Shown piece after piece: positions 1 to 55,651 of a stretch of 64,000 bases of DNA. The position numbers and the translations under genes were made by a program. Positions within the stretch are counted from its first letter, which is position 1, and the number at the start of each line of letters is the position of its first letter. The stretch lies in NCBI GenBank assembly GCA_039794045.1, contig JBAMLY010000001.1, positions 1 through 64,000 of the forward strand, read 5' to 3'. The notes below the pieces were generated by a model, which ran no database searches, was not told the DNA's origin, and worked only from the letters and a program-made list of their open reading frames with translations. Source of the stretch: Candidatus Micrarchaeia archaeon. GTDB taxonomy: Archaea; Micrarchaeota; Micrarchaeia; Norongarragalinales; UBA8480.

Positions 1-104
1 GGTTGGCCCACCTCCCCGCTTGCCAAAGCCTGCCAAAAAACATTTTTCGCGCGCCAGTAATAAGCGCGGGCAGTAAAGCAATGCATTCGCTTGCTGTCCT
101 GGTT

Positions 105-302
105 TTAGCCGCGTTTTGGTGGCGTGCGCTCTAAACCGCTTAACTTCCACAGGAAGTAAGCAGCGTAAACCGCGAAAGCCAGCGAGAGAACGTAAACGAG
201 TGCTTCAAGAGAGTACGCGCCAAAAGAATACCCTACGAGTTGCAAGACGAACAATACGAGGCAAGCAGCTAAAACTACTTCAATTGCTTTGTCTAACTTC
301 AT
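105..302 (-). CDS. small membrane protein (2 predicted TM helices)
   Basis: 65-aa hydrophobic ORF; start overlaps the stop of the upstream ORF. Confidence 0.6.
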   Translation of the reverse strand: MKLDKAIEVVLAACLVLFVLQLVGYSFGAYSLEALVYVLSLAFAVYAAYFLWKLSGLERTPPKRG

Positions 303-1135
303 TTCCTTTCTCCCCCGAAATTTCCTCTTGGCTTGGGAATCTTTAGTTCAGGGTAGGCGTCGTTTGCCACCTCCACTGAAACGAAGGGCGGAAAACCCCC
401 GTGCTCTAATACCCTGGAGTAAAAGAAGCGCTTGCCTTCTTTAATGTTTTGCGCACCAGCAGCACGCTCGATTTCCTCGTCCACGTGGGACTCGCGCGCA
501 GCAGCAAGCATTTCCGTCACGCGCGCGGCAGACTTTCTGTGAGGAAAGCGTGAAAGAAACTCTTCAGCTAACGCGTTCACGCCAAGCAGCGAACCAGTCT
601 TCCTGTAGAGAGTAAAATGAATTCCCACCAAGCCAACGAAGGCCTCCTTGCGCTCGCCTTCAAGCGAAGCCTTTTTCACCACCGTCCACTCGGGCAAACT
701 CGAAGCAAGCCGCACTTCGTTCTTTGAATGCTTTCCAGAAAAAACTGGGGCGTCGAAAGGCAGAACGCGGTCGAACACTTTTTTGACGTAGAAAGCCAAG
801 GCAATGGCGCGGAAAGCCTTGCGCTGGCACTCGTACTTCTTGCGTTCGTCGTCCTCCACTTCCCGTGGCGGAACTGTTACAGCTGCTTCCAGCGAAGCTT
901 CAAGCCTGGCCGGCTTCAGGGAAGAAAAAAAGTCTTCCAAGCCGTTTGCGCGAACGCCTTCGGCTAGCCGCGACAACTTCCCGCACTCTATTGGCGCGTA
1001 CTCGAATTCTTTTAAGGCGACGAGCTCTAACGCGCGAGACAACAACGAAGCCAGCCCGCGCTCGTCCGCTCCAGACAATTTCTCGAAAGCAGGAAAGTCT
1101 GGAAAAGCAGAAGCAAACAACACGAATTCTTCCAT
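299..1135 (-). CDS. DUF2666-like archaeal protein, apparently two tandem domains
   Basis: Start at MEEFVLF just after rpl37ae; C-terminal YPELKIPKPRG resembles DUF2666 termini. Confidence 0.55.
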   Translation of the reverse strand: MEEFVLFASAFPDFPAFEKLSGADERGLASLLSRALELVALKEFEYAPIECGKLSRLAEGVRANGLEDFFSSLKPARLEASLEAAVTVPPREVEDDERKKYECQRKAFRAIALAFYVKKVFDRVLPFDAPVFSGKHSKNEVRLASSLPEWTVVKKASLEGERKEAFVGLVGIHFTLYRKTGSLLGVNALAEEFLSRFPHRKSAARVTEMLAAARESHVDEEIERAAGAQNIKEGKRFFYSRVLEHGGFPPFVSVEVANDAYPELKIPKPRGNFGGERK

Positions 1136-7619: not shown

Positions 7620-8339
7620 TTGCACGGCCACGCGATAGCACACGAAATAATTGAGAAAGCAAGAAAAAAAGGAGAGCCAAAAGCAATCGAAGTAGAAGTA
7701 GGCGAACTCTCCACCATCACACCCTCAGAGTTAATGAAGTCATTGAAGCAGCACGTTAACTGGAAGGTCCGCATTTTCTACAGGAAAGGCGTCGTAGCCT
7801 GCGCGTGCGGCTTCAAAGGCAAGCCAAAAATACTGGCGCGGGAACACGACTTAGTGTTGTTTGCTTGCCCGAAGTGCGGCGCGGCCCCACAAGCAGTGAA
7901 AGGAAATTCAGTGTTCCTCAAGAAAGTGACGCTTGACGCCACGCCAACTTTCTTGGCCGTCGGAAACCCCTTGCTGGAAGGAGACTCGCTTGCGCTCGCG
8001 GCCTGCAAGCGCGCTTCAAAAAAAAGCAGTGCTTCCTTTGTTTTCTGCGAGAGCTTGGACGACTTGATGGAAGAACTCTCTGCAAGGGGAGGCAAAAAAA
8101 TAGTCGTTGACGCCGCCAAAGGAATAAGCAAGCCACGCCTCGTTAAACTAAAGGCGCTGAAGGCAGAGCCAGTTGTTGGAGCGCACTCCTTCGACGCTGG
8201 CTTCTTTCTCCGCTTGGCTGAAGCCGCAGGAGCCGCGCGCGGCGTGAAAGTGCTTGCCTTGCCTGAAAACTCTTCCTTAGACGATGCCGTGCACGCGGTT
8301 TTAAAAGCTGCGGGCGGAAAGCACCCCAAAAAGCGCTAG
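7620..8339 (+). CDS. hypA: HypA nickel metallochaperone fused to hydrogenase maturation endopeptidase-like domain
   Basis: N-term MH..., VEVGELS, CxC...CPKC (HypA); C-term VGNPLLEGDS...VVDAA...AH (HycI/HybD-like). Confidence 0.8.
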   Translation: MHGHAIAHEIIEKARKKGEPKAIEVEVGELSTITPSELMKSLKQHVNWKVRIFYRKGVVACACGFKGKPKILAREHDLVLFACPKCGAAPQAVKGNSVFLKKVTLDATPTFLAVGNPLLEGDSLALAACKRASKKSSASFVFCESLDDLMEELSARGGKKIVVDAAKGISKPRLVKLKALKAEPVVGAHSFDAGFFLRLAEAAGAARGVKVLALPENSSLDDAVHAVLKAAGGKHPKKR

Positions 8340-8416
8340 ACCCTCTGCTTAAAAGAAGGCTTTCTCAGCTTCCTTCTCTCTTTTCTCTTCCGTCGCAGTT
8401 TCTTGCTCTTCAGCAA
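8336..8416 (-). CDS. putative 26-aa highly basic peptide (eL41/eS32-like composition)
   Basis: TTG start 6 nt after AGGTGA; (M)LKSKKLRRKRKERRKLRKPSFKQRV*; not in the ORF track. Confidence 0.35.
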   Translation of the reverse strand: MLKSKKLRRKRKERRKLRKPSFKQRV

Positions 8417-8426
8417 ACCAGTTCAC

Positions 8427-9776
8427 CTACTTGATTTTATTGAGTTTCAACTCTAAAAAGTGCGCGGCACAAGAAAAGCACGGGTCGTAAGCGCGCACGA
8501 GCTTCTCTATCTCTGCAACAAGTTTTTGCTTCGGCAAAGAGCGCCGAACTTGGTTCGGTGGCCCACCCGCCCGCTGAGCAGACGCTGAAGCTATCAATTC
8601 TCGCAGCAGCGCCTTCAAGTCTTCCTCGATGTTGCGAACGTTTTGCTGCGTAGGAGTAATAATTCTAGCATCGCGCACCATGCCGCGCTCGTCCAAAGAG
8701 TACTCGTGGTAAAGCACGCCGCGAGGTGCCTCGCTCAAAGCGCGTCCAGTAGCCTTCCTGAACTCCAGCGCGTGCAATGGCTCGACGCGAATTTTGGGAA
8801 TGAGTTCCTCAATCAATTCAGTTGCTTCGTCAAGAAAGTGAACTAATTCAATTGCTTGAGCGAAGTTGTTCGCAAAAGGAGTAAAGCTCGGAAAACGAAT
8901 GCTTGACTCTAGAGCCACTTCCCTCGCATCGTCAGACAAGAAAGAGAAATTGTTGTTTACGCGCGCCAGAGCACCGGTCAAGTAAGGCTTGCCGCCGAAA
9001 GCGTGTTTTTTGGCAGTGGAACCATCTACCACTTCCTCTGAAACTTCCTCGAAAAACTTTTTGCCGCTCGCCTTCCAAGTCTTTGCGTTCCTGCCAAACG
9101 AGTTCAACACTACTTCCTTTCCACTCACCAAATAGTTTTTCAGCGAAAAGTATTGCGTGCGCCTCTCGAACGCAGGGTAATCAAGAGAGCCAAACAAGCG
9201 AGCGGTTTCCACGGCGTCAGCTTTAGCGTTCTTGACAGAGTCAAGCAGCGCTTCAAGCCTCGCTTTTGTTGGAACGCTCCTGAAACCACCCACCGCCGCA
9301 GTCACAGCATTTATTTCTCGCCCGCCCACCGACAAGCAAAGCTCGGTCGAAACTCGCTTCAACGCCATGGCTCGCTTGAAGTCAGCAGGCCGAGCCGGCG
9401 CCATTTCAATAGCGCTAGCAAAGCCAAGGTAGTCAGGCAACGCCAGAAAATACAAGTGAAGCGCGTGACTTGAAATTATTTGCGCTATTTGAAGGAGCTC
9501 GCGCAACTTCAAAGACTGCTCTGAAACACTGAGCCCGAGCGCGTCTTCGACCGCGTTAATCGCGGTTACTTGGTGGGCTTGAGAACAAAAACCGCAAATG
9601 CGCGCGGCAGTAATCGGTATTTCAGTGCAAGAATGCCCTCTCACAAGCGACTCAAAAAAACGCGCGCCTTCAGTGACGTCAAGCTTTACATCTTTCACTT
9701 CGTTCTTGGAAATAGTCACCACCAAACGCGCGTGACCCTCTATCTTGGAAAGCTTTTCAATCCTTATTTCAGTCAT
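8427..9776 (-). CDS. hydA: group 3b [NiFe]-hydrogenase large (alpha) subunit
   Basis: KIEGH, GARFFE, RICGFC (L1), EAPRG.LYH, DPCFSCAAH (L2) followed by a C-terminal extension. Confidence 0.93.
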   Translation of the reverse strand: MTEIRIEKLSKIEGHARLVVTISKNEVKDVKLDVTEGARFFESLVRGHSCTEIPITAARICGFCSQAHQVTAINAVEDALGLSVSEQSLKLRELLQIAQIISSHALHLYFLALPDYLGFASAIEMAPARPADFKRAMALKRVSTELCLSVGGREINAVTAAVGGFRSVPTKARLEALLDSVKNAKADAVETARLFGSLDYPAFERRTQYFSLKNYLVSGKEVVLNSFGRNAKTWKASGKKFFEEVSEEVVDGSTAKKHAFGGKPYLTGALARVNNNFSFLSDDAREVALESSIRFPSFTPFANNFAQAIELVHFLDEATELIEELIPKIRVEPLHALEFRKATGRALSEAPRGVLYHEYSLDERGMVRDARIITPTQQNVRNIEEDLKALLRELIASASAQRAGGPPNQVRRSLPKQKLVAEIEKLVRAYDPCFSCAAHFLELKLNKIK

Positions 9777-10564
9777 TTAATCCAGCCCTTTAAACGGCAA
9801 TAGTCTTTGAAGCGCTTCGAGCGCCCAGCAAAACGAATTATTTTCTGTTTTACTTGCTCTTCACTCAACCCACAATTACGCAGCACTAGCTCAAAAGCTT
9901 CAAGGTTAGCATCGTCGAAAGGCCCGCGGCAATTCTCGCAAGGCATGTTGTGCGAAGGACACAAAGCATTGCATCCCCCCGCGCTGACAGGACCCATGCA
10001 AGGAATCCCCTTGTCAAGAAAACACGCGTTCTCTTTAATCTTGCACTCCATGCAAACTGAAACGTATTTCGGCTTCGGAGTCTTTCCGTGCACTAAGTCC
10101 TTCAAGACGCGATGCAACTCCGTGCGCTCCACAGGACAACCCCGCAAATAATAGTCGACTACAACGAACTCGTCTATTGGGCGCGGGCTCACCGCATTTA
10201 ATTCCCTTGCCTTGCCACCGAAAGCCAGGCGCTCAACTTCACCCTCGTCCAAAAAAGACTTCTGAGCTGGAATGCCGCCATCGCAAGAACAAGAACCCAA
10301 GGCAACCAAGAACTTAGAGCCCTCGCGCACGAGCTTCAATTCCTTCTCGTGCTCTCTCCGCAAAACCCCGCCTTCAACGAAAGCCACGTCCAAGCCCTCA
10401 ACGCCCCCTCCTTCCTCATTAGTCAAAGCAAATTCCTTGAACTCGACTCGCTCGCAAACCTCTGGAAAGTCTTCAAGCTTCAACAACTGCAGTTGGCACC
10501 CGAAGCACCCACCGAAACCGAACACACCCGCCACGAGCTTGCCGTTGCTTGCCGCTTTATTCAT
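9773..10564 (-). CDS. hydD: group 3b [NiFe]-hydrogenase small (delta) subunit
   Basis: CFGCQ, FVEG, GSCSCDGGI, GCP, CMECK...CMGP...GC.ALCP...CENCRG. Confidence 0.92.
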   Translation of the reverse strand: MNKAASNGKLVAGVFGFGGCFGCQLQLLKLEDFPEVCERVEFKEFALTNEEGGGVEGLDVAFVEGGVLRREHEKELKLVREGSKFLVALGSCSCDGGIPAQKSFLDEGEVERLAFGGKARELNAVSPRPIDEFVVVDYYLRGCPVERTELHRVLKDLVHGKTPKPKYVSVCMECKIKENACFLDKGIPCMGPVSAGGCNALCPSHNMPCENCRGPFDDANLEAFELVLRNCGLSEEQVKQKIIRFAGRSKRFKDYCRLKGWIK

Positions 10565-10573
10565 TTGACTTCC

Positions 10574-11386
10574 TCACTCCGCAGACAACTTCTTTCTCTC
10601 AGCAAAAGAAAAAACAGGGCCGTCAACGCAAACGTACCTGCCGTGAACCATGCAGTGCCCGCACTTGCCTACCCCGCAGTGCATCAACCTCTCAAGAGAA
10701 ACGAAAACATTGTCAGCCTTCATTCCACGCGAAACCAGTTGCTCGGCAACCACGTCCATCATTTTAGGCGGCCCACACAAGAACGCAGCCGAAGCAAAAG
10801 ACGAGGGAGGCTTTGCTGAAAGAGCAGACGAAACAAAGCCAACACAGCCAGTCCACCCCACGCAAGAAACGTCCACCGACTTTACCACGCGCACTCCCTC
10901 CTCGCTCCATTTCCTCAAGTCATCCTCAAAGAGAAAGTCGGAAGGAGAATGCGCTCCGTAATACAAGAAAACCTCGTCGAAGAGCTTCAAGTGAACACTG
11001 CACGCAATCGCAGAACGCAAGGAAGCCATTCCAAACCCCCCCGCAACGAAGACAACGCTTTTCCCCTTGAAAGCACTCAAAGGATAACCTTTCCCAAAAG
11101 GACCACGCAAGCCAACCTCGCTTCCAACACCCAAGGAATGCAGAGCACGAGACACGTTGCCTACAGCCTTGACAGTAACCCATAAGCCCTCGTGCGGCGC
11201 GCTAGAAACAGAGAAAGGCGCCTCGCCAAAGCCAGGCACGGAAACCTCCACAAACTGCCCAGGAGAAAAAGAAAAAACTCGCTCGTCGCGCGGCGACTTG
11301 AACTTCAACTCGAAAGTCTTCAAACCGCCTGCTTCAACGCGAACCGAGGAAACAACACAAGACAATGGCAGAAACGAGTTCCTCAC
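10574..11386 (-). CDS. hydG: group 3b hydrogenase gamma subunit (FAD/NAD(P)-binding, 2Fe-2S)
   Basis: PGQF, GEAPFS, RGPFGKGY, AGGFG, CGPPKMM, ERLMHCGVGKCGHC...CVDGPVF. Confidence 0.92.
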   Translation of the reverse strand: MRNSFLPLSCVVSSVRVEAGGLKTFELKFKSPRDERVFSFSPGQFVEVSVPGFGEAPFSVSSAPHEGLWVTVKAVGNVSRALHSLGVGSEVGLRGPFGKGYPLSAFKGKSVVFVAGGFGMASLRSAIACSVHLKLFDEVFLYYGAHSPSDFLFEDDLRKWSEEGVRVVKSVDVSCVGWTGCVGFVSSALSAKPPSSFASAAFLCGPPKMMDVVAEQLVSRGMKADNVFVSLERLMHCGVGKCGHCMVHGRYVCVDGPVFSFAERKKLSAE

Positions 11387-12372
11387 CTTCTCTCACCAGT
11401 CTTGAAAGCATAGTCAGCCGCGCTCACACTAGTTGGACACACTGCAGCGCACCTGCCACACCCAGTGCAAGCGTTGAAGCCGAATTCCTTCTCGTACCAC
11501 GAAAACTTGTGTTGAATGCGGCAACGAGTACGCTCTACTTGCCCAGCGCGAAAAACAAAGCCGCCAGCCACTCGAGTAAAGCCAGTAAAAGGACACCCAC
11601 TCCAACGCCGCGCCCGCTGACCCCTAACCCCACTCAAGTCAAGCTCGTCTTCCACGTCAAAGCACGTGCACGTCGGGCAAATCGTGGTACACATCCCGCA
11701 ACTCAAGCACTTTTCAGCCCAGTCCTGCCAATGAAAAACAATGTCTGGAGCAGCGCCCAACTTCTTCAAGTCAGCTTTTCTCTTGCACGCAACTTGAACC
11801 AAGGGCTCCTCGCTGGACTCCCGCAACACGTGCATCGCGGCGCTCACCATCTGCTCGCCCTTGAAAGAATGAACTTCAACGAGCCACTCCTCGCCAGCAT
11901 CCACGAGAAACAAGTCAGCGCCAGCACGCGCGTTGCGAGTGCCCATAGAGTCACAAAAACAATTCTTTGAAGGAACCACGCAATTCATTCCAATCAAGGC
12001 AGTCTTGCTCCTGCGATTCAAGTAATACTTGTCTTCAAAACCCCGAGAAAAAAACGCGTCTGTAACCGCAATCGCGGCCAAGTCGCAGGGGCGAACACCG
12101 AAAATCACTTGCTCGAAGTCACTGGAAACAGATTTCGTGACCGCGCCCTCTCCACCCAAAGAAAACTCGAGGAGCGGCTCGTGAGGAGGAAGCAAGAACT
12201 TCTTGTGCGAGTAATAAGTATTATGAGCAGTGAAAACCTCTTTTCCTGGCCTCCACAAAGAAAACTTGGTGACGCCGCCTTCCCTCGCGGGAGCAATAAC
12301 TTGCCTCGGCGTAGGCGAAACACGCAACGCGCTCAAGAACTCTTTGACTCTGCGTTTTTCTAGTGCGAGCAT
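11383..12372 (-). CDS. hydB: group 3b hydrogenase beta subunit (4Fe-4S dicluster)
   Basis: GVRPCD, CFC, CLSCGMCTTICPTCTCF, CTGCGRCAAVCP. Confidence 0.9.
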   Translation of the reverse strand: MLALEKRRVKEFLSALRVSPTPRQVIAPAREGGVTKFSLWRPGKEVFTAHNTYYSHKKFLLPPHEPLLEFSLGGEGAVTKSVSSDFEQVIFGVRPCDLAAIAVTDAFFSRGFEDKYYLNRRSKTALIGMNCVVPSKNCFCDSMGTRNARAGADLFLVDAGEEWLVEVHSFKGEQMVSAAMHVLRESSEEPLVQVACKRKADLKKLGAAPDIVFHWQDWAEKCLSCGMCTTICPTCTCFDVEDELDLSGVRGQRARRWSGCPFTGFTRVAGGFVFRAGQVERTRCRIQHKFSWYEKEFGFNACTGCGRCAAVCPTSVSAADYAFKTGERR

Positions 12373-12465
12373 GAAAACCAATCTCGTTCGTTACTGCGCA
12401 ACAAAATAAATAAGTAATGCTGGCTCCCACTGCAGTCGCTTTCCAGCAAAGCCGCCCAGCCAAAC

Positions 12466-16853: not shown

Positions 16854-16992
16854 AAACTTTTCTTCCTTTTCTCTTACGCGCCAAATCTTTTTTTTCACGC
16901 GTTCTAGCCACGCTTCCCATCCACAAGAAAAAACTGAGGAAGCTGAAAGGGTTTTAAATCAAGTGCAGTAATGAGTGGGAGAGGAGTTGGCG

Positions 16993-19338
16993 ATGGCTAA
17001 AAACATTTACTGGTTTCAAGAACTCACCAAGGAAAGCCTGGCAGTTGCCGGCGGCAAAGGCGCAAACTTGGGGGAAATGATTAACGCTGGCTTGCCGGTG
17101 CCAGAGGGCTTCGTCGTAGCAAGCGAGGCTTACTTCGAGTTCGTGCGCGTAAACAACTTGGGAGAAGTAATTCGCGCGCAAACCAGTAACTTAGACGTGC
17201 AAAACACTCTCGCCTTAAACGCGGCCTCGGACGCTATAAAGAAAGCCATTCTCGCAGGCGAGATCCCGCAAGAAATCCGCGCGGATATAGTGCGTGCTTA
17301 CAACAAGTTGTGCGGAACAGAATTAATGCCTGCCCCCTCACAGGAAGTCTACGTTGCAGTCCGCTCTAGCGCTACCGCAGAAGACTTGCCTGAAGCAAGT
17401 TTTGCAGGACAACAAGAAACTTTCTTGAACGTGAAAGGAAGCGACGCCTTAATAGAAGCAGTCAAGAAATGCTGGGCTTCATTGTTTGGAGCGCGCGCCA
17501 TCTACTACAGGGAACAACAGCATTTCGACCACTTAAAAGTAGGAATCGCGGTTCCAGTCCAGCGCATGGTGCAAAGCGACAAAAGCGGCGTAATGTTCTC
17601 CATAGACCCAGTAACCAACGACTCAACAAAAATAGTGATAGAAGGCGGGCTTGGATTGGGCGAGGCTGTAGTGAGTGGTTCAATCACGCCAGACCACTAC
17701 GCCGTAGACAAGAACTCGTTTGAAATCGTTGAAAAAAAAATTAACACGCAAACGCAGATGATTACGCGAGTAGGAGACCACAACGAGTGGCAGCCAGTCC
17801 CTGAAGAAATACAGTCAATCCAAAAACTCTCAGACGACGAAATAGTGAGGTTAGCGCGCTACGCGAAAGCCATCGAAGAACACTACGGCTTCCCGCAAGA
17901 CATAGAGTGGGCAATCGAGGGAGAAAACATTTACATAGTCCAATCGCGCGCAGTCACCACCACAAAGAAAAAAGCTGTTGAAAAAACTACACAGCCAACC
18001 GAAAGCCAGCCGCAAACACCCGAGAACGCGAAAGTAATAATTCAAGGACTCGGCGCATCACCTGGAATTGCGTCCGGGCAAGTGCGCATAGTAACCGACT
18101 TAAAGGAACTCTACAAAGTAAGAAAAGGCGACGTCCTAGTAACGCAAATGACTACTCCTGACTTCGTGCCTGCAATGAAGCGCGCCGCAGCCATAGTGAC
18201 TGACGAAGGAGGAAGCACTTGCCACGCAAGCATAGTAAGCAGGGAACTCGGCATTCCATGCATTGTCGGAACCCGTAAGGCAACGGCGTTGCTGGAAGAA
18301 GGAGAAACCGTGACAGTGGACGCGTTCCACGGCGTAGTCTACCAAGGAAAAGTAGAGGCAGTTGCGCAAGAAAAAGCCGCCCCACAAACAACAACAGGCA
18401 AGATAGCACTCCAGCAATCAATCCTCGTTACCGGCACCAAGATTTACGTTAACCTCGCTGAACCAGAACTCGCCGAAAAAGTCGCAGCCGAAAACGTTGA
18501 CGGCGTCGGATTACTGCGCGCAGAATTCATGATCGCAGGCATCGGCAAGCACCCAAAGTGGCTATTAAAGCAAGGAAGAGGACAAGAATTCGTTGACGCC
18601 CTCGCAAAAGGACTCCGCAAAGTATGCGCTGCGTTCGGCGACCGCCCAGTAATATACAGGGCCACGGACTTCAAAACCAACGAGTACAAGAGCCTGGAAG
18701 GCGGGGCAGAGTTCGAGCCACACGAAGAAAACCCAATGATTGGCTACAGGGGCTGCTTCCGCTACATCAAAGACCCAGAAGTATTCAAACTAGAACTGGA
18801 AGCAATAAAGCGCGTCCGAGAACAATACGGCATGAAAAACTTGTGGCTAATGATTCCAGTAGTGAGAACCGTGCGCGAATTCAAGCTAGTAAAAGAAATA
18901 ATTGAAGAAACTGGCTTGCACAAGAGCTACGACTTCAAGCTCGGAATAATGTGTGAAGTGCCTTCCACCGTAATCCTCGCAGAAGAATTCTGTCGCGCAG
19001 GCGCGGACTTCTTCAGCATCGGCTCAAACGACTTAACTCAACTAACGCTCGGAATAGACCGCGACAACCCAATAGTAGCCGAGGAATTCGACGAACGCGA
19101 CCCCGCAATCCTGCGAAGCATTAAGCACGTAATAGAAACGTGCCACAAATACGGAGTCAAAGTAAGCTGCTGCGGCCAAGCCCCTTCAGTCTACCCTGAA
19201 TTCGCTGAAGCGCTAGTGCGCTACGGCATAGACAGCATAAGCGTAAACCCCGACGTCATAGAAAAAACGCGTCGCACCATCGCAAGCGCAGAAAAAAGAA
19301 TTCTGCTGGAAGGCGCGAGACGCCAGCAAGCCCCCTAA
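16993..19338 (+). CDS. ppsA: phosphoenolpyruvate synthase (pyruvate,water dikinase)
   Basis: GGKGANLGEM, VRSSATAEDLPEASFAGQQET, GGSTCHASIVSRE, SIGSNDLTQ. Confidence 0.97.
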   Translation: MAKNIYWFQELTKESLAVAGGKGANLGEMINAGLPVPEGFVVASEAYFEFVRVNNLGEVIRAQTSNLDVQNTLALNAASDAIKKAILAGEIPQEIRADIVRAYNKLCGTELMPAPSQEVYVAVRSSATAEDLPEASFAGQQETFLNVKGSDALIEAVKKCWASLFGARAIYYREQQHFDHLKVGIAVPVQRMVQSDKSGVMFSIDPVTNDSTKIVIEGGLGLGEAVVSGSITPDHYAVDKNSFEIVEKKINTQTQMITRVGDHNEWQPVPEEIQSIQKLSDDEIVRLARYAKAIEEHYGFPQDIEWAIEGENIYIVQSRAVTTTKKKAVEKTTQPTESQPQTPENAKVIIQGLGASPGIASGQVRIVTDLKELYKVRKGDVLVTQMTTPDFVPAMKRAAAIVTDEGGSTCHASIVSRELGIPCIVGTRKATALLEEGETVTVDAFHGVVYQGKVEAVAQEKAAPQTTTGKIALQQSILVTGTKIYVNLAEPELAEKVAAENVDGVGLLRAEFMIAGIGKHPKWLLKQGRGQEFVDALAKGLRKVCAAFGDRPVIYRATDFKTNEYKSLEGGAEFEPHEENPMIGYRGCFRYIKDPEVFKLELEAIKRVREQYGMKNLWLMIPVVRTVREFKLVKEIIEETGLHKSYDFKLGIMCEVPSTVILAEEFCRAGADFFSIGSNDLTQLTLGIDRDNPIVAEEFDERDPAILRSIKHVIETCHKYGVKVSCCGQAPSVYPEFAEALVRYGIDSISVNPDVIEKTRRTIASAEKRILLEGARRQQAP

Positions 19339-19417
19339 AAATTTTCTCAGCCTCCCCGCCACCCCCCTCGTTTTTATTTGAGTAAAAACAATAGTATTAA
19401 GGAGGCGCAAAACGCGA

Positions 19418-20911
19418 ATGAAGAGCTTGCAAGCAAAATACCCTTGGCTCAACAGCCACTTGAAACGCTCTAAGTTATTGCTTGAAGGAGTCAAGACGAC
19501 AACCGGCGAAGACGCCTTTCAACGCAACCTACGGCTAGTCCGCAAAGTAATCGAAGCCCTGCCAGACCCCAACCACAAAGAACAACGCGATGTAGTAATA
19601 GCGGCGGCCTACTACGGCGTGCCCAAAGACAAACTCAAAGCCGTGCCCTCAGTCGTCAAGCCAATAGTAGAGTCAACCAGCAAGGTAAGACAAATGATTC
19701 TGCAACATAAGCCAGAAAAAGAAGTCCTTGAAGAACTCGTCGTACACCGCGGCGCGCCCCTAATTGAAACGCTTGCGATGGCGGACGCCATGGAAAACCT
19801 TGAAAAAGAACCAGCGCACTTGAAGGAAACGCTTGCTCGCTACGCGTTGTTCGTTCACAGCACAGTAGCGCGCCACGGCCTCTACGACGCCCACAAAAAA
19901 ATAGAGGAAAACGCTTTCAAGTACTTGTACCCCAAATACTACAACGAAATAAAAAAAGACATTGAAGACATGTACAAAATAAATTGGGTTCAAAACTCGA
20001 TTGGAACAGCGCAAGTAGTCGCGAAAGACATTCTCAACCAAATGAATGAGAAAGCGAAAAAAAACAATCAATTAATTGAATACGAAATCCAAGGCCCCGA
20101 AGTAAAAAGCATTCCCAGCATTCACTACAAACTCGAGGAATACAGGAACTCTTCAGAAGAAAAAAAGAAAAACATCAAGTACGCCTACGAACTCCCAGAC
20201 ATCATAAGAATGCGCGTAATAATAGAAAAAAACGACCCCAAACTCTTATACGAGTTCCTGCAACGCCTCCAAAAACACGAGGGAGTCAGCGAAGTAACAG
20301 ACGTCGAGGACAGGCTCGGCCCCAGAAAAAAACCAAACGGTTACGAGTCACTTCACGCCATAATCAAATTCAAAAACCCTGAAGCGCACCCAATAGAATT
20401 ACAGATAAGAACAAGAAAAATGCATGAAGTCGCAGAAAAAGGAAAAGCATCGCACTACCTCTACAAGACAGAAAAAACTCGCGCGCTTCCCTCCGGAGAA
20501 ATCAAGCGCTTGCCCGTCATGCCAAGAGAATTCTTCGACGAAATAAAGAAAAAACTAGGAGTAAGCGAAGCACACTTAAGCAAGCAAGCAGTCGTCCTCA
20601 ACCAAGTCCGCGTAAACGGCAAACTGCACTTGATTTGCGACGCGCCCATCGTAGAAGCCGCGGTGCTGCACTACGGAGAAAAAGTCAAAGACATGTTTCC
20701 ATTGGCAGCTAAAATAAACGGCAAGCCAGCCCCCCTCTCCGCCAGAATAAAAGACGGCGACGAAATAGAGTTCTACCGCGACACCAAGAACGGCAAAATG
20801 GTGCCAATAGACGCTCCCCTCGTGCAAGAAACCAGGAAACTAATTACCAAGTACAATTTGTGGGAAAAAAAGGGAGCAAAAAGGAAGGCCGCAGAAAGAA
20901 AAATCAAATGA
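19418..20911 (+). CDS. RelA/SpoT homologue: degenerate HD domain + (p)ppGpp-synthetase-like domain + TGS domain
   Basis: KSIPSIHYK, DIIRMRVI, KPNGYESLH, ELQIRTRKMHEVAEKGKASHYLYK; TGS-like AAKINGKPAPLSARIKDGDEIEF. Confidence 0.88.
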   Translation: MKSLQAKYPWLNSHLKRSKLLLEGVKTTTGEDAFQRNLRLVRKVIEALPDPNHKEQRDVVIAAAYYGVPKDKLKAVPSVVKPIVESTSKVRQMILQHKPEKEVLEELVVHRGAPLIETLAMADAMENLEKEPAHLKETLARYALFVHSTVARHGLYDAHKKIEENAFKYLYPKYYNEIKKDIEDMYKINWVQNSIGTAQVVAKDILNQMNEKAKKNNQLIEYEIQGPEVKSIPSIHYKLEEYRNSSEEKKKNIKYAYELPDIIRMRVIIEKNDPKLLYEFLQRLQKHEGVSEVTDVEDRLGPRKKPNGYESLHAIIKFKNPEAHPIELQIRTRKMHEVAEKGKASHYLYKTEKTRALPSGEIKRLPVMPREFFDEIKKKLGVSEAHLSKQAVVLNQVRVNGKLHLICDAPIVEAAVLHYGEKVKDMFPLAAKINGKPAPLSARIKDGDEIEFYRDTKNGKMVPIDAPLVQETRKLITKYNLWEKKGAKRKAAERKIK

Positions 20912-21497
20912 AGGCCTTCAACAAGAAAGCCACTCTCTCCTTCAGTTGGTCGCGGGAGCCGTCGTTCACTATCTTTTCGTCAGCCAAGTCCATACAAGCG
21001 CCAACCATTTGCGCCGACGAAATCATTCCCGCCCTCTCCCTCGCATCGCTTTCCTTGAACTCTTCAAAAGAAAGAAGGTTTTCTTTAGCGCGCTTGCGTT
21101 GCTTGACGCGCTCGTACCTTAACTCCAACGGCGCATCAACCGCCCACAACACGAAGTTCCTTCCAAGGCGCCTCAAAAAATTGACTTCGCCGACGTTGCG
21201 AATGCCGTCAACGAAAACAATTTTCACTTTCTCCGGCAACTCAGACGCGCGCTCTAAAGCCATTTCAGCAAGAACGCCAGTGCCTTTCTCGGCGCGCAAC
21301 TCATTCGCAACCCTCTGCAAGTTCTCCCTCTCCAAGCTCAAGCCACGCCTCGCCGTCTCCTCGCGAACGATGTCGCTCGTGCTAACCGAGGCCACGCGGT
21401 CGCCGTAAAGCTCTCGCGCAACCTCTATCACAGTCCCCTTGCCTGAAGCGAAAGTGCCAGTCAAGCCCACGAACTTCCTTTCCGAGTTTAAAGCCAT
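20904..21497 (-). CDS. P-loop nucleotide kinase (UPF0200/dephospho-CoA-kinase-like)
   Basis: GLTGTFASGKGT, VDGIRN, DAPLELRYER. Confidence 0.85.
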   Translation of the reverse strand: MALNSERKFVGLTGTFASGKGTVIEVARELYGDRVASVSTSDIVREETARRGLSLERENLQRVANELRAEKGTGVLAEMALERASELPEKVKIVFVDGIRNVGEVNFLRRLGRNFVLWAVDAPLELRYERVKQRKRAKENLLSFEEFKESDARERAGMISSAQMVGACMDLADEKIVNDGSRDQLKERVAFLLKAFI

Positions 21498-21623
21498 GAA
21501 GAAAACCACGAAAGCGAAGTATTTATTTTATGCTGCCGCCAATGAACGCGCCATCCCGAGTGAGCGCAACACGCAAGAAAAAAAGTGCACGGGTTTTTAT
21601 AGAAACGCCAACAAAACAATTTC

Positions 21624-22190
21624 ATGACCGACAAGTTAAGCAAAGCAATAAACCGCGCCATAGCCGAACTCAGCGAAAAAGAAAAAAGACAGGACGCAGC
21701 AATAGCGCTCTCTCGCGAAATAGTGCGCGACTGCGCCCTCGCCATAAAAGCAGTCCACCAAAACGAGTGGAAGGAAGCAGAAAAAAAACTAGCCGAAATA
21801 ACGCCGAAAATAAAGAAAATGCATTCCTTGGACGAGGGACTAGAACACGTTTCCCAGCAGTGCTACCAAGAATACGCGGAAATAAAGTGCTTGGAAGCCA
21901 TCACCAAGAAAAAAGAAATTCCAGACTACGACGAACTCGGCATTGACGCCATTTCTTGGATGAATGGATTAGCGGACTGCGCAGGCGAACTAAGACGCGC
22001 CCTCCAACTTGCTCTTTCAAGCGGCGACAAAGAACAAGCGAAGTACTTGTTCCAGAAAATGAATGAAATATACGACAACCTAATGCTCGTAAAATACTCG
22101 TCTTCACTTGTGGGCGGGCTGAAGCACAAGCAAGACGTCGTGCGCTCTCAAGTAGAGCAAGCCAGAAGCGAAATCTTGAGGTTCTCGTGA
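21624..22190 (+). CDS. translin family protein
   Basis: LSREIVRDC, QEYAE, GLADCAGELRR. Confidence 0.88.
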   Translation: MTDKLSKAINRAIAELSEKEKRQDAAIALSREIVRDCALAIKAVHQNEWKEAEKKLAEITPKIKKMHSLDEGLEHVSQQCYQEYAEIKCLEAITKKKEIPDYDELGIDAISWMNGLADCAGELRRALQLALSSGDKEQAKYLFQKMNEIYDNLMLVKYSSSLVGGLKHKQDVVRSQVEQARSEILRFS

Positions 22191-22230
22191 AAAAAAGCGT
22201 TGCCTTCAAACGCTTTCAACGGTGGTTTAA

Positions 22231-23532
22231 GTGCTTGAAATAAAGTTAATACGCAAAAACCCGGAAGCAGTACGCGCCAACCTAGCCCGCCGCAACAACC
22301 CTGTCTTCCTGGAGTGGTTCGACGACTTGCTAGTCGTAGACGCAGAACAAAGGCGCCTCCTCCAAGAACTCGAGCAACTGCGCGCCACGCGCAACCAGTT
22401 GACTGAAAAAATCAAGGAACTCAAGAAAACAGGCGAAGACGCTTCCGCGCTACTCAATGAAGCCGCGCAGCTCCCACAAAAAATAAAAGCAGTAGAAGAA
22501 CAACAAGAAAAGCTCGCCCAGCGAATGAAGAATTACTTGATGCGGCTGCCGAACCTGCTTCACGAAAGCGTTCCAACCGGAAAAGACGAGTCTGAAAACG
22601 AGGTAGTCCGCGAGTGGGGCGGCAAAAAAATCCCGTGCGACGACCCAAAAAGCCACGTTGACCTCCTAGCACAACTTGACGTGGGCGACTTAGAGCGCGC
22701 TGCAAAAATTTCCGGAGCCCGCTTCTATTACTTGAAGAACGAGCTAGTCTTGCTGGACTTGGCGCTGCAGAGGCTGGCGCTAGAAATGCTTTTCAAGAAA
22801 GGCTTCACGTTAGTCGAGCCGCCGCACATGATGGCGCGCAAGCCATACGAGGGCGTCACAGACTTGAATGACTTCAAGGAAGTCATGTACAAAGTTGAAG
22901 AAGAAGACTTGTACTTAATCGCGACAAGCGAGCACCCCCTCGTGTCAATGCATTGGAACGAAATTCTTGAGGCTGAAGAGTTGCCAATAAAGTACGCGGG
23001 AATAAGCCCTTGCTACCGCAAGGAAGCCGGAGCGCACGGGAAGGACACGAAAGGTATTTTCCGCACGCACCAGTTCAACAAAGTCGAACAAATCGTGTTC
23101 TGCAAGCCAGAAGAGTCCTGGCAGTTGCACGAGGAACTGCTTGCAAACGCAGAAGAATTCTTCAAGAAAATAGAGATTCCCTACCGCGTCGTAAACATTT
23201 GCACTGGCGACATTGGAACCGTGGCGGCAAAAAAGTATGACATCGAAGCCTGGATGCCCGCCCAACAAAAATACCGCGAAGTCGTCAGCGCAAGCAACTG
23301 CACTTCCTACCAAGCAGCGCGCCTTGGCCTACGCTACAGAACAGGAAAAAAGAACGCTAAAGGAGAAGAAGAAAAAGAGCTAGTGCACACGCTTAACTCG
23401 ACAATGGTTGCCACGGGCCGCGCGATGGTCGCAATAATGGAGAACCACCAGCAGGACGACGGCAGCGTAATCATTCCAAAAGCACTGCGCCCTTACATGA
23501 ACGGCATAGAACGAATTTCGCGGAAGAAGTGA
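22231..23532 (+). CDS. serS: seryl-tRNA synthetase
   Basis: N-terminal coiled coil, LIATSEHP, CYRKEAG...GIFRTHQFNKVEQ, VHTLNST. Confidence 0.97.
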   Translation: MLEIKLIRKNPEAVRANLARRNNPVFLEWFDDLLVVDAEQRRLLQELEQLRATRNQLTEKIKELKKTGEDASALLNEAAQLPQKIKAVEEQQEKLAQRMKNYLMRLPNLLHESVPTGKDESENEVVREWGGKKIPCDDPKSHVDLLAQLDVGDLERAAKISGARFYYLKNELVLLDLALQRLALEMLFKKGFTLVEPPHMMARKPYEGVTDLNDFKEVMYKVEEEDLYLIATSEHPLVSMHWNEILEAEELPIKYAGISPCYRKEAGAHGKDTKGIFRTHQFNKVEQIVFCKPEESWQLHEELLANAEEFFKKIEIPYRVVNICTGDIGTVAAKKYDIEAWMPAQQKYREVVSASNCTSYQAARLGLRYRTGKKNAKGEEEKELVHTLNSTMVATGRAMVAIMENHQQDDGSVIIPKALRPYMNGIERISRKK

Positions 23533-23539
23533 AACGCGG

Positions 23540-24736
23540 ATGGGAATTCAAACAAAAGAAGTTTACGAGTTCAAGCAGAAAATCAAGGAATTGCAGGAGT
23601 TCAAGGGCCACGGCACTGAACTTATTAGCGTATACATTACGCCAGGCTACCCAATCAGCGACGTTGCCGCCAAACTACGCGACGAGTACGGACAAGCTTC
23701 GAACATCAAGAGCAAAAGCACGCGCTTGAACGTGCAAGCCGCAATAGAAAAAATTCTCGCCTTCCTTAAGACCATGAACAAGCCGCCAGAAAACGGCATA
23801 GCCATATTCGCTGGAAACGTCAGCGAAACAGAGGGCAAGACTGACGTGAGGTTGTTTTACGTCGTTCCGCCAACTCCATTGAAAGTACAGTTTTACCGTT
23901 GCGAGAGCGCCTTCGTAACCGAACCGCTTGAAGACATGCTAGCACAAACTGGGAGCTACGGACTCGTGGTAATGGACGGAAAGGAAGCCACCGTAGCGCT
24001 CCTCAAGGGAACCAGCATCAAAGTAATAAAGAAGCTTCACAGCACTGCCCACCAAAAATTTAGCAAGGGCGGCCAAAGTGCTGCAAGATTCGGCCGAATT
24101 CACGAAGAAACAGTAGAAAAGTACTATCAACGCATAGGCGAGGCAATGGACGCTTTCGTGGGAGTTAAAGGCCTCAAAGGAGTAATAGTTGGCGGGCCCG
24201 GCCCAGCGAAAGAAAACTTTTTGAGGTTAAAGCCGTTCAACTACCAAATAAAAATACTCGGCGTAGTCGACACCGGCTACACGGATGAGTACGGCTTGCG
24301 TGAAGTGCTGGAAAAAAGCAGTGAAATAATCGCGGAACAAGAAGCAGTGAAAGAAAAAAAGTTGTTGGACGAGTTCATGCGAGAAATCGTGAAGGGCGGA
24401 CTCGCAGTTTACGGCATAGACGACATTCGTGAAGCCCTCGCCACCCGCAAGGTTTCCAAGTTGTTGGTCAGCGAGGGACTTGAACTAAAAGAATTCAAGA
24501 TGAAGTGCGACAAGTGCGGTAAAGAGTTTACGCGCGTGGGAGAAAAACCGCCTGAAGAAGAATGCGAGTGCGGCGGCAAACCCAAGGTAGTCTCAGAAAC
24601 AGACTTAGTGGAAGAAATCCAGCGCCTCGCGGAAGAACAAAGCATTCCAATAGAACTCGTTTCAACTGAAACAATGGAAGGCTCGCAATTCCGCGCAACA
24701 TTCCATGGCATGGGTGCTTTCCTACGCTACAAGTAA
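23540..24736 (+). CDS. prf1: peptide chain release factor aRF1
   Basis: GTELISVY, ASNIKSK, YRCES, KGGQSAARF. Confidence 0.97.
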   Translation: MGIQTKEVYEFKQKIKELQEFKGHGTELISVYITPGYPISDVAAKLRDEYGQASNIKSKSTRLNVQAAIEKILAFLKTMNKPPENGIAIFAGNVSETEGKTDVRLFYVVPPTPLKVQFYRCESAFVTEPLEDMLAQTGSYGLVVMDGKEATVALLKGTSIKVIKKLHSTAHQKFSKGGQSAARFGRIHEETVEKYYQRIGEAMDAFVGVKGLKGVIVGGPGPAKENFLRLKPFNYQIKILGVVDTGYTDEYGLREVLEKSSEIIAEQEAVKEKKLLDEFMREIVKGGLAVYGIDDIREALATRKVSKLLVSEGLELKEFKMKCDKCGKEFTRVGEKPPEEECECGGKPKVVSETDLVEEIQRLAEEQSIPIELVSTETMEGSQFRATFHGMGAFLRYK

Positions 24737-55558: not shown

Positions 55559-55651
55559 GGGCCTGTAGATCAACGGTTCGCTCTCGAGAGCGCGTTAAAG
55601 ATCGCATGCATGGCATGCATGAGGTTGTGGGTTCGAATCCCGCCAGGTCCA
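55559..55651 (+). tRNA. tRNA-Ala(GGC) with 21-nt D-loop intron (55578-55598, position 20/21)
   Basis: GGGCCTG/CAGGTCC acceptor with G3:U70; CATGC-AT GGC AT-GCATG; strict BHB around the intron. Confidence 0.93.

Follow-up and report, generated by a model that had tools for sequence, protein, structure and literature searches.

The first 64,000 nucleotides of contig JBAMLY010000001.1 (assembly GCA_039794045.1), from a Candidatus Micrarchaeia archaeon and referred to below as the window, contain an open frame on the plus strand (19418..20911, ATG start, 497 aa) that codes for a highly diverged RelA/SpoT homologue (RSH). The gene lies downstream of ppsA, which codes for a phosphoenolpyruvate (PEP) synthase, and converges on a gene for a P-loop nucleotide-kinase-like protein, in an assembly of 655,099 bases (16 contigs, 92.1% complete, 0.03% contamination) where a genome scan found one RelA_SpoT match (68.9 bits). 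Among sequencing runs, the sequence occurs in one DNA run, a hot-springs metagenome that is possibly its source; a second run from that study has next to none of its words, and no RNA run is listed. The 79-nt spacer between ppsA and the RSH gene (19339..19417, plus strand) contains a T/A-rich TTTTTATTT at 19371-19379, about 40 nt 5' of the ATG, and an AAGGAGG at 19399-19405, 12 nt before it, which may serve as promoter element and ribosome-binding site of the RSH gene, respectively. The gene and the domains assigned to its product are as follows.

19418..20911, plus strand: RSH gene, 497 aa, composed of pseudo-HD, SYNTH, linker, TGS-like beta-grasp and basic C-terminal helix
19418..19933, plus strand: pseudo-hydrolase domain, residues 1-172 (fold match to small alarmone hydrolases (SAH)/Mesh1, motif table, alignments)
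19931..20476, plus strand: SYNTH domain, residues 172-353 (Pfam match at 229-353, fold match to the small alarmone synthetases (SAS) SAS1/SAS2, conservation over 125 sequences)
20459..20596, plus strand: linker between SYNTH and beta-grasp, residues 348-393 (predicted local distance difference test, pLDDT, below 50 at 348-373, 379-382 and 386-393)
20597..20782, plus strand: TGS-position beta-grasp domain, residues 394-455 (HMMER alignment to E. coli RelA, isolated-domain model)
20825..20905, plus strand: long single C-terminal helix with a basic tail, residues 470-496 (DSSP)

An earlier account of this locus, made from the sequence alone (the preliminary description), had proposed a RelA-like long RSH and a search with the RelA_SpoT, HD_4 and TGS models. 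In that search, Pfam RelA_SpoT (PF04607) matches residues 229-353 with 65.4 bits (E 7.1e-18, cut-off 27), TGS reaches 14.9 bits, under its cut-off of 22.2, and no match to HD_4 or HD appears at E <= 0.1. The motifs quoted in that account (KSIPSIHYK, LPDIIRMR, KPNGYESLH, ELQIRTRKMHEVAEKGKASHYLYK, AAAYYG and MADAMEN) are all present in the translation. The NCBIfam model TIGR00691 (spoT_relA) aligns residues 127-458 with profile positions 121-426 at 76.4 bits, below its cut-off of 499.2; long RSHs make up 13 of the 15 matches at E <= 1 in a PDB sequence search, and HMMER aligns residues 248-452 with E. coli RelA 263-463, through the RelA TGS. The chain stops at residue 497, about 40 residues past the beta-grasp, and the positions of the zinc-finger domain (ZFD) and of the RRM/ACT domain are taken by one basic helix (470-496), with no ACT_4 or ACT match in the protein, which bears out the described absence of the ZFD/ACT tail. 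The net charge over the last 25 residues is +9, and net positive tails are found in 27 of 29 relatives too.

The fold was predicted with AlphaFold2 from a 125-sequence alignment built around the RSH protein. The model has a pLDDT of 85.4 and a predicted TM score (pTM) of 0.73, with values below 50 confined to the linker 348-393, and it leans on long-RSH homology because the input alignment held bacterial long RSHs. In this model the domain order is shown to be an HD-fold pseudo-hydrolase, SYNTH, a flexible linker, a beta-grasp in the TGS position and a basic helix. Foldseek places B. subtilis Rel (6yxa, E 5.2e-14) at the head of its matches, together with ribosome-bound RelA and full-length SpoT. 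VIA-align gives Z 24.6 against 6yxa over model residues 1..497 and Z 23.8 against the N-terminal region of B. subtilis Rel (8acu_B; rmsd 2.5 Å over 298 residues, model 1..343). Parts of the model also match smaller enzymes, SAH/Mesh1 structures at residues 5-171 (Z 14.6-15.2) and SAS1/SAS2 at residues 172-351 (Z 14.4-14.9), with CapRel at Z 11.1 and Tas1 at Z 9.7, and long RSHs outrank SAS, CapRel and Tas1 by this score.

Residues 386-497 modelled alone form a beta-grasp followed by one long helix (pLDDT 80.1). With this isolated domain Foldseek returned no match at E <= 0.001, the best (about 1e-2) being a mixture of ThiS and TGS domains, among them the SpoT TGS (31% identity over 65 columns) and the 3hvz TGS (rmsd 2.2 Å). 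A fold search independent of Foldseek gave MoaD/ThiS (Z 6.3-7.0) tied with the RelA and SpoT TGS (Z 6.4). The domain is named TGS-like here because it is a beta-grasp in the TGS position with a weak TGS sequence signal; of the TGS domain in the preliminary description, the fold and its place are upheld, while its family assignment is loosened by the Pfam score under cut-off and by the tie with MoaD/ThiS. RelA His432, which we take to be a contact of the tRNA CCA end, lies in a region that HMMER and MAFFT place differently, and no equivalent is claimed.

The N-terminal domain keeps the hydrolase fold in the model and none of the metal ligands. R36/N37 replace the His, Y66-G67 replace the His-Asp and MADAMEN replaces ADRLHN, so that the hydrolase columns, which read H, H-D, E-D, D-R-H-N in a canonical short RSH (P0174), read R, Y-G, K-gap, D-A-E-N in the RSH protein. 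This, with the lack of any HD_4 or HD match, confirms the HD region as degenerate. The Asp of the His-Asp pair is retained in one of 30 rows of the divergent archaeal group (P0226 only), so the dead hydrolase is a trait of the whole group and not an accident of one gene.

The synthetase site is nearly complete. The residues kept are K230, S234, K238, D261, R266, K305, N307, G308, Y309, H313, E327, Q329, M335, H336 and E340; D261 and Y309 are invariant in the 125 aligned sequences, and the position of E327 is Glu in 119 of them. A DVED acidic stretch stands where the EXDD motif of RelA presumably lies. In RelSeq, according to the passages cited from PMC7983052, D264 and E323 form the catalytic pair, Y308 stacks on guanine and the adenine of ATP is sandwiched by R241 and R269. 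The equivalent of R269 is present as R266, and the equivalent of R241, two residues before K230 (K230-2), is a Glu (E228). The line-up with Rel/RelA that had been proposed is thus correct for the catalytic and guanine-stacking residues and for the K-x-N-G-Y loop, but not for this Arg. The Arg is missing in four of the 125 rows (the RSH protein, P0121, P0202 and L025). P0121 shares the loss and keeps the other named SYNTH residues except N307 (Thr), which points to a tolerated change rather than decay. Active-site erosion differs between lineages of archaeal RSHs: in family f20 (L050, L052, L053, L056, L059, L060) the R266 position is Thr or Met, and in three family-f9 proteins (L007, L009, L040) the catalytic Glu, at the E327 position, is Asn or Ser.

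Relatives of the protein are distant. In a word-indexed protein search the best non-self match is bacterial and 31% identical, and the named near matches are bacterial long RSHs (24-31%). A phmmer search over 1.84 billion representatives gave 3105 matches at E <= 1e-3 and only two at E <= 1e-30, namely P0121 (413 aa, 35% identity) and a 68-aa fragment identical to the C-terminus of the RSH. The nearest Atlas cluster has 132 members, 66% of them Archaea, most commonly Microcaldota (kingdom Nanobdellati); along with the size and gene content of the genome, this cluster suggests a DPANN-type archaeon. A profile of 19 archaeal proteins of the kind found in the window scores about 260 bits with bacterial long RSHs, the matches listed being all bacterial long RSHs, and because of this score the homology of the N-terminal region plus TGS-position domain to long RSHs is not in doubt.

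A quick IQ-TREE analysis (LG+C20 PMSF, 85 rows, 463 columns), in which the root is not placed, the bacterial rows carry no taxon labels and the named RelA sequences are not among the rows, joins the RSH protein to P0121 (SH-aLRT 99), within a nine-row clade (SH-aLRT 92) that includes RSHs of its own family, from genera g2 and g4. A separate 41-row clade (SH-aLRT 92) comprises bacterial-type long RSHs, short HD-SYNTH-TGS proteins and the sequences of family f23, and the remaining divergent archaeal sequences form an unresolved comb of long branches. An approximately unbiased (AU) test on a reduced tree (41 rows, LG+G4) does not reject a clade that unites every family-f1 RSH with five unlabelled relatives, a group chosen after the tree was seen (p-AU 0.51). 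Holding only the seven labelled family-f1 rows together is rejected (p-AU 3.7e-06), a test that is ill-posed because it forces out unlabelled sisters of the labelled rows, such as P0123.

Of the 68 genomes searched in the order, 25 have a RelA_SpoT match above cut-off, among them 11 of the 22 of high quality and six of the 11 from the RSH protein's own family; in the phylum, 110 out of 401 genomes sampled have a match at E <= 0.001. The distribution is uneven by family (f19 62/80, f23 7/8, f12 0/33, f13 1/89, f14 3/82). Pfam annotation of 41 archaeal RelA_SpoT proteins separates three kinds. Canonical proteins with HD_4, RelA_SpoT, TGS and ACT_4 all come from family f23 (L043, L044, L049; about 650 aa in L043 and L044). 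Divergent proteins of 450-680 aa, the kind to which the RSH protein belongs, have a central SYNTH and a weak or absent HD_4/TGS signal, and conserved proteins of 355-400 aa have SYNTH near the N-terminus. In family f23 (L043-L049), of the same class, seven of eight sampled genomes carry the canonical long RSH, which is about 650 aa long and scores about 137 bits. Because they group with the bacterial-type sequences in the tree, the f23 RSHs represent a second, separate archaeal RSH lineage. A third, well conserved clade (L042, L051, L054, L057, L058, L061, L062; 355-400 aa), spread over five families, has SYNTH at 70-190 and a C-terminal half without assigned domain; one pair from it is 84% identical with a dN/dS (ratio of nonsynonymous to synonymous substitution rates) of 0.04.

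The RSH gene is archaeal and native, and within its order of small-genome, DPANN-type archaea it has been passed down at one constant position (ppsA-RSH-kinase-translin-SerS). Profile scans of 40 of the 68 window open reading frames of at least 90 aa identify Rrp41, Rrp42 and Rrp4, SBDS, the archaeal proteasome alpha subunit, L15e, Alba and archaeal uL16, as well as NcsA, PEP synthase, SerS, aRF1, TruD and Orc1/Cdc6. The local order is NcsA-uL16-ppsA-RSH-kinase-translin-SerS-aRF1, and the nearest neighbours are as follows.

16975..19338, plus strand: PEP synthase (ppsA), upstream neighbour (NF005057, 997.6 bits)
20904..21509, minus strand: P-loop nucleotide-kinase-like gene, convergent (AAA_17/AAA_18; PRK08356 59.2 bits, below cut-off)
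21624..24736, plus strand: translin-like protein, seryl-tRNA synthetase and aRF1, in the same order in G008, G017 and G003

The 3' ends of the RSH and kinase-like genes overlap by 8 nt. The GC content of the RSH gene (46.2%) is about two standard deviations (SD) under the window mean (51.3 +/- 2.5); its third-position GC (GC3, 0.547 vs 0.583 +/- 0.049) and codon-usage correlation (r 0.73 vs 0.765 +/- 0.079) are ordinary for the window. The housekeeping context (ppsA, translin, serS, aRF1) noticed in the preliminary description is borne out by the profile scans and by the recurrence of the gene order, and the chimeric bacterial misassembly that it had named as an alternative is contradicted by the archaeal flanks, the recurring synteny and the typical GC3 and codon usage. 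Its observation of no adjacent antitoxin also stands, the neighbours being ppsA and the kinase-like gene, both of which persist without the RSH, and PADLOC giving the RSH only a 32.7-bit match to the candidate system PDC-S33. As a separate observation, the kinase-like gene resembles the kinase part of anti-phage dCTP deaminase models (PADLOC dCTPase 68.8 bits; NCBIfam 39.6 bits, cut-off 400). This gene runs in the same direction as ppsA in G003, G010 and G017 but is inverted in the window and in G008.

Conservation of this arrangement was assessed by tblastn of the window neighbours against 43 RSH loci, for adjacency of ppsA and the kinase, and on 18 extended loci for the wider order. ppsA adjoins the RSH in nine of the 43 (six of six in the own family, two of three in f7, one of five in f11 and none of the remaining 29), and the kinase-like gene adjoins it in five, staying beside ppsA where the RSH is absent. 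G008 repeats NcsA-uL16-ppsA-RSH-kinase (convergent)-translin, and its identity to the window is 55.1% for NcsA, 75.0% for uL16, 75.7% for ppsA, 59.3% for the kinase and 67.6% for translin, against 24.7% for the RSH. The RSH has been lost, truncated or inverted in some relatives. In genus g3 it occupies the same position on the opposite strand. Within genus g4, the RSH of G010 measures 359 aa and lacks the beta-grasp, the kinase gene of G003 (91% complete) lies 66 nt after ppsA with no RSH between them, and G007 has neither gene at that place; three RSH queries against the G003 and G007 stretches found nothing at E <= 1e-3. As G003 joins ppsA directly to the kinase gene, the RSH is dispensable. 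The archaeal clade with conserved synteny that had been suggested as a check is thus found in part: there is a clade of sequences from small-genome archaea, with ppsA linkage at all RSH loci of the own family, but the gene is patchy and is lost in close relatives.

The proportion of nonsynonymous differences (pN) is far below that of synonymous differences (pS) in all six closer pairs of relatives (e.g., 0.29 vs 0.74; 0.09 vs 0.71), with synonymous sites saturated in every pair and dS computable in only two. As to relaxed selection, which the preliminary description had raised, these values speak for constraint, although in pairs of relatives and not in the own lineage. We read the RSH as an old gene of the order, inherited in place, under purifying selection where it is kept, evolving about three times faster than its neighbours, and dispensable.

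As had been described, no obvious hydrolase partner accompanies the gene: the genome has no HD_4 at E <= 0.1. It does code for two generic HD proteins (L014, L015) and three Nudix proteins, one of which reads as IPP-isomerase-like from its sequence, with no specific family or PDB match marking any of them as an alarmone hydrolase. Across the order HD_4 is found in 25 of 68 genomes, in some as a stand-alone protein beside an RSH in the same genome (e.g., G017, G025), and the only two HD_4 matches in the own family lie inside RSH genes themselves.

Among known systems, E. coli RelA (5iqr, 5kpv) shares with the RSH protein a hydrolase-dead HD fold, SYNTH and a TGS-position beta-grasp (VIA-align Z 22.8 over model 1..485). 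It differs in having 744 residues against 497, with the ZFD and RRM/ACT domains that the archaeal protein lacks and a helical domain where the latter has one helix; in addition, the archaeal RSH has lost an adenine-sandwich Arg, lies outside the bacterial-type clade and would work with an archaeal ribosome. "RelA-like" therefore fits in the sense of hydrolase-dead, but the protein is not a RelA orthologue, given its position outside the clade of bacterial-type long RSHs and its 76 bits against the 499-bit TIGR00691 cut-off. B. subtilis Rel (6yxa, 8acu) is the best structural match of the model, although Rel is bifunctional with an intact HD site, the ligands of which are all replaced in the archaeal RSH, and identity is 16-20%. 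Short HD-SYNTH-TGS RSHs of about 460-510 aa (P0147, P0148, P0151, P0162, P0170, P0174) are alike in length and in ending soon after the TGS, but they have HD_4, RelA_SpoT and TGS above the Pfam cut-offs, most keep the His-Asp, and they group in the tree with canonical bacterial RSHs; most Atlas clusters with this short architecture come from bacteria of candidate phyla, for example WWE3 and Peregrinibacteria. SAS and toxic SAS (toxSAS), such as RelQ/RelP, CapRel and Tas1, share the SYNTH fold (Z 14.9 for SAS1, 11.1 for CapRel, 9.7 for Tas1), whereas the archaeal RSH has a full N-terminal HD fold, a TGS-position domain and no toxin-antitoxin partner.

We interpret the RSH gene as coding for a native archaeal, shortened and highly diverged long RelA/SpoT homologue of [hS] type, with a dead hydrolase and a live-looking synthetase, and predict it, with a probability of roughly 0.55, to be a monofunctional (p)ppGpp-type synthetase. 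SYNTH retains the catalytic pair (Asp and Glu), the Tyr that stacks on guanine and the lysines that bind phosphate. It would make (p)ppGpp by moving the beta,gamma-pyrophosphate from ATP onto the 3'-OH of either GDP or GTP, and the absence of one Arg from the adenine sandwich probably weakens or changes its binding of ATP. The pseudo-HD would act solely as an intramolecular regulatory partner, as in RelA, where such a role has been proposed (PMC8012599). Through the beta-grasp and basic helix, activity might depend on an RNA that the protein binds; uncharged tRNA is the most plausible one, whether or not the archaeal ribosome takes part. As no RSH-type hydrolase was found, the alarmone would have to be cleared by different enzymes, for which the three Nudix and two generic HD proteins are candidates, or by dilution.

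Several observations weigh against this interpretation. The residue at K230-2, which contacts the ATP adenine in solved RSHs, is Glu here and Arg in 121 of 125 sequences. Relatives have lost the second Arg or the catalytic Glu, so catalysis is not under uniform constraint, and the genome has no dedicated hydrolase. The Pfam TGS score is below cut-off, and the isolated beta-grasp fold alone cannot separate TGS from MoaD/ThiS. The gene is dispensable, being present in 25 of 68 genomes of the order and cleanly absent in G003. Finally, no relative exceeds 35% identity among the 1.84 billion representatives, and the selection figures come from other lineages. The confidence is held at the value given because of the missing Arg, the lack of a hydrolase and the catalytic residues lost in some relatives. 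A more specific version, tentative and clearly less likely than not, is an archaeal alarmone system built differently from that of bacteria, in which a hydrolase-dead RSH without C-terminal domains reads uncharged tRNA, off the ribosome or on an archaeal one, through its TGS-like beta-grasp and helix, and makes (p)ppGpp or a related nucleotide with an altered ATP pocket in cells that have no RSH hydrolase, and in which the threefold faster divergence would reflect retuning of the sensor in host-dependent, genome-reduced archaea.

The same losses could mean that the protein has little or no catalytic activity left and is a relic, which would persist, where it does, as a regulator or scaffold that binds RNA or the ribosome, and would be heading for loss in the lineage. 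The missing adenine-sandwich Arg, the loss of the catalytic Glu or second Arg in relatives, the G010 protein (359 aa) cut off before the beta-grasp, the clean absence in G003 with a patchy presence (25/68) and the identity of about 25% between positional orthologues would all be expected of such a protein. We nonetheless consider it rather unlikely: the frame is intact and the fold confident, all SYNTH residues conserved in at least 90% of the 125 sequences are kept save the K230-2 Arg, pN is well below pS in the six pairs of relatives, and P0121 shares the Arg loss yet keeps the other named residues except N307 (Thr). Alternatively, the enzyme could be an active pyrophosphokinase with another product, making (pp)pApp or modifying the 3' CCA of tRNA, like FaRel, FaRel2, CapRel and Tas1, with the TGS-like domain bringing the tRNA. 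Its SYNTH fold does match CapRel and Tas1 (Z 11.1 and 9.7), nucleotide-binding arginines are altered in the group (E228 here; Thr or Met at R266 in f20), the TGS-position domain and very basic tail (+9) suggest RNA binding, and divergence is fast. This possibility looks quite unlikely, since (p)ppGpp-making long RSHs are its closest matches in both sequence and structure, no CapRel, FaRel2 or Tas1 chain appears among the PDB sequence matches at E <= 1, the gene has no adjacent antitoxin-like partner, and the guanine-stacking Tyr and the K-x-N-G-Y loop are retained, the latter being a loop that some toxSAS keep too.

Extreme divergence beside slowly evolving neighbours and sporadic loss would also suit a fused toxin-type or defence RSH (CapRel-like), its divergence then being due to an arms race, either against viruses or against the host of this symbiont-type archaeon, and the weak PADLOC match to the candidate system PDC-S33 (32.7 bits) and the likeness of the downstream kinase-like gene to the kinase part of the anti-phage dCTP deaminase model point the same way. 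Such a role is very improbable for a single-copy gene that sits not in a variable island but at a fixed spot in a housekeeping order common to three families, whose kinase neighbour stays where the RSH is lost, and whose product has the architecture of a long-RSH N-terminal region plus a TGS-position domain, not that of a toxSAS with a C-terminal antitoxin domain. That the gene is bacterial, either on a chimeric contig or through a very recent transfer, is refuted as far as the data go. The named near matches are all bacterial long RSHs at 24-31% identity and the GC content of the gene (46.2%) falls some 2 SD short of the window mean, but archaeal genes extend on both sides for tens of kilobases, further genomes of the order repeat the gene arrangement, the gene does not stand out from the window in GC3 or codon usage, no bacterial sequence exceeds 35% identity, and the protein clusters with RSHs of small-genome archaea, outside the bacterial-type clade.

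Other features were noted in the window and in related genomes. A tRNA at 55559-55651 (plus strand; Rfam 53.4 bits) is missed by ARAGORN and has a 22-nt insertion in the D-arm region, which is probably an intron at a non-canonical position. A NiFe sulfhydrogenase-like cluster of four subunits (HydA/D/G/B-like; 8427-12381, minus strand) is found in this 0.66-Mb genome and is adjoined by a HypA-like gene at 7620-8339 (the whole region being 7620-12381). In genus g4 of the own family, G003, G007 and G011 contain 17-20 matches each to ppsA residues ~350-457, the PEP-utilizers mobile domain, mostly inside open frames of about 350-530 aa (e.g., G007:C9:6771-7088 and G003:C32), with one match each in G001 and G004. 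The many matches appear to reflect a family of paralogues with this domain that has expanded.

In the passages cited, Atkinson et al. 2011 report long RSHs to be missing from archaea and list only sporadic SAS and SAH (PMC3153485). Jimmy et al. 2020 classified the RSHs of 24,072 genomes, and among the four of 428 matches listed from their Dataset S1 all are GCF (RefSeq) assemblies and the two RSH carriers, both methanogens, have SAS only (PMC7229694). Haloferax and Sulfolobus are reported to be free of (p)ppGpp (PMC8646023, PMC10249747). According to the part of Li et al. 2021 cited here, RelA/SpoT is present in 69.0% of Diapherotrites, 41.7% of Woesearchaeota, 21.3% of Pacearchaeota and 19.0% of Nanoarchaeota, and the RelA/SpoT of DPANN archaea is predicted to derive from Bacteria (PMC8407392). 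The RSH studied here agrees with these in the type of gene and in the type of organism that carries it, and the frequencies of 25/68 and 110/401 fall within the published range. That excerpt gives presence only, and the domain anatomy, dead hydrolase, synteny and divergence rate are added here. A full-text literature search, limited to one library, found nothing published on how these archaeal RSHs are built, on their synteny or on their activity. "Uncharacterised", as the gene had been called, thus holds for its anatomy in the literature searched, but not for its existence, DPANN RelA/SpoT having been in print since 2021 (PMC8407392, as excerpted).

The value of the finding is tempered by the prior publication of the gene family in DPANN archaea, by the dispensability of the RSH in close relatives and by a synthetase activity that is so far predicted from its residues. 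Within these bounds, the divergence of the RSH (about 25% identity, vs 55-76% for its neighbours at one locus) shows rate heterogeneity in a clean form and calls for an explanation. The protein represents a natural minimal long RSH, in which the hydrolase site, the ZFD, the RRM and one ATP-binding Arg can be lost while the fold and most catalytic residues persist, and, as a compact archaeal protein of 497 aa with a nearly complete synthetase site, it would offer a direct handle on whether some archaea make alarmones.

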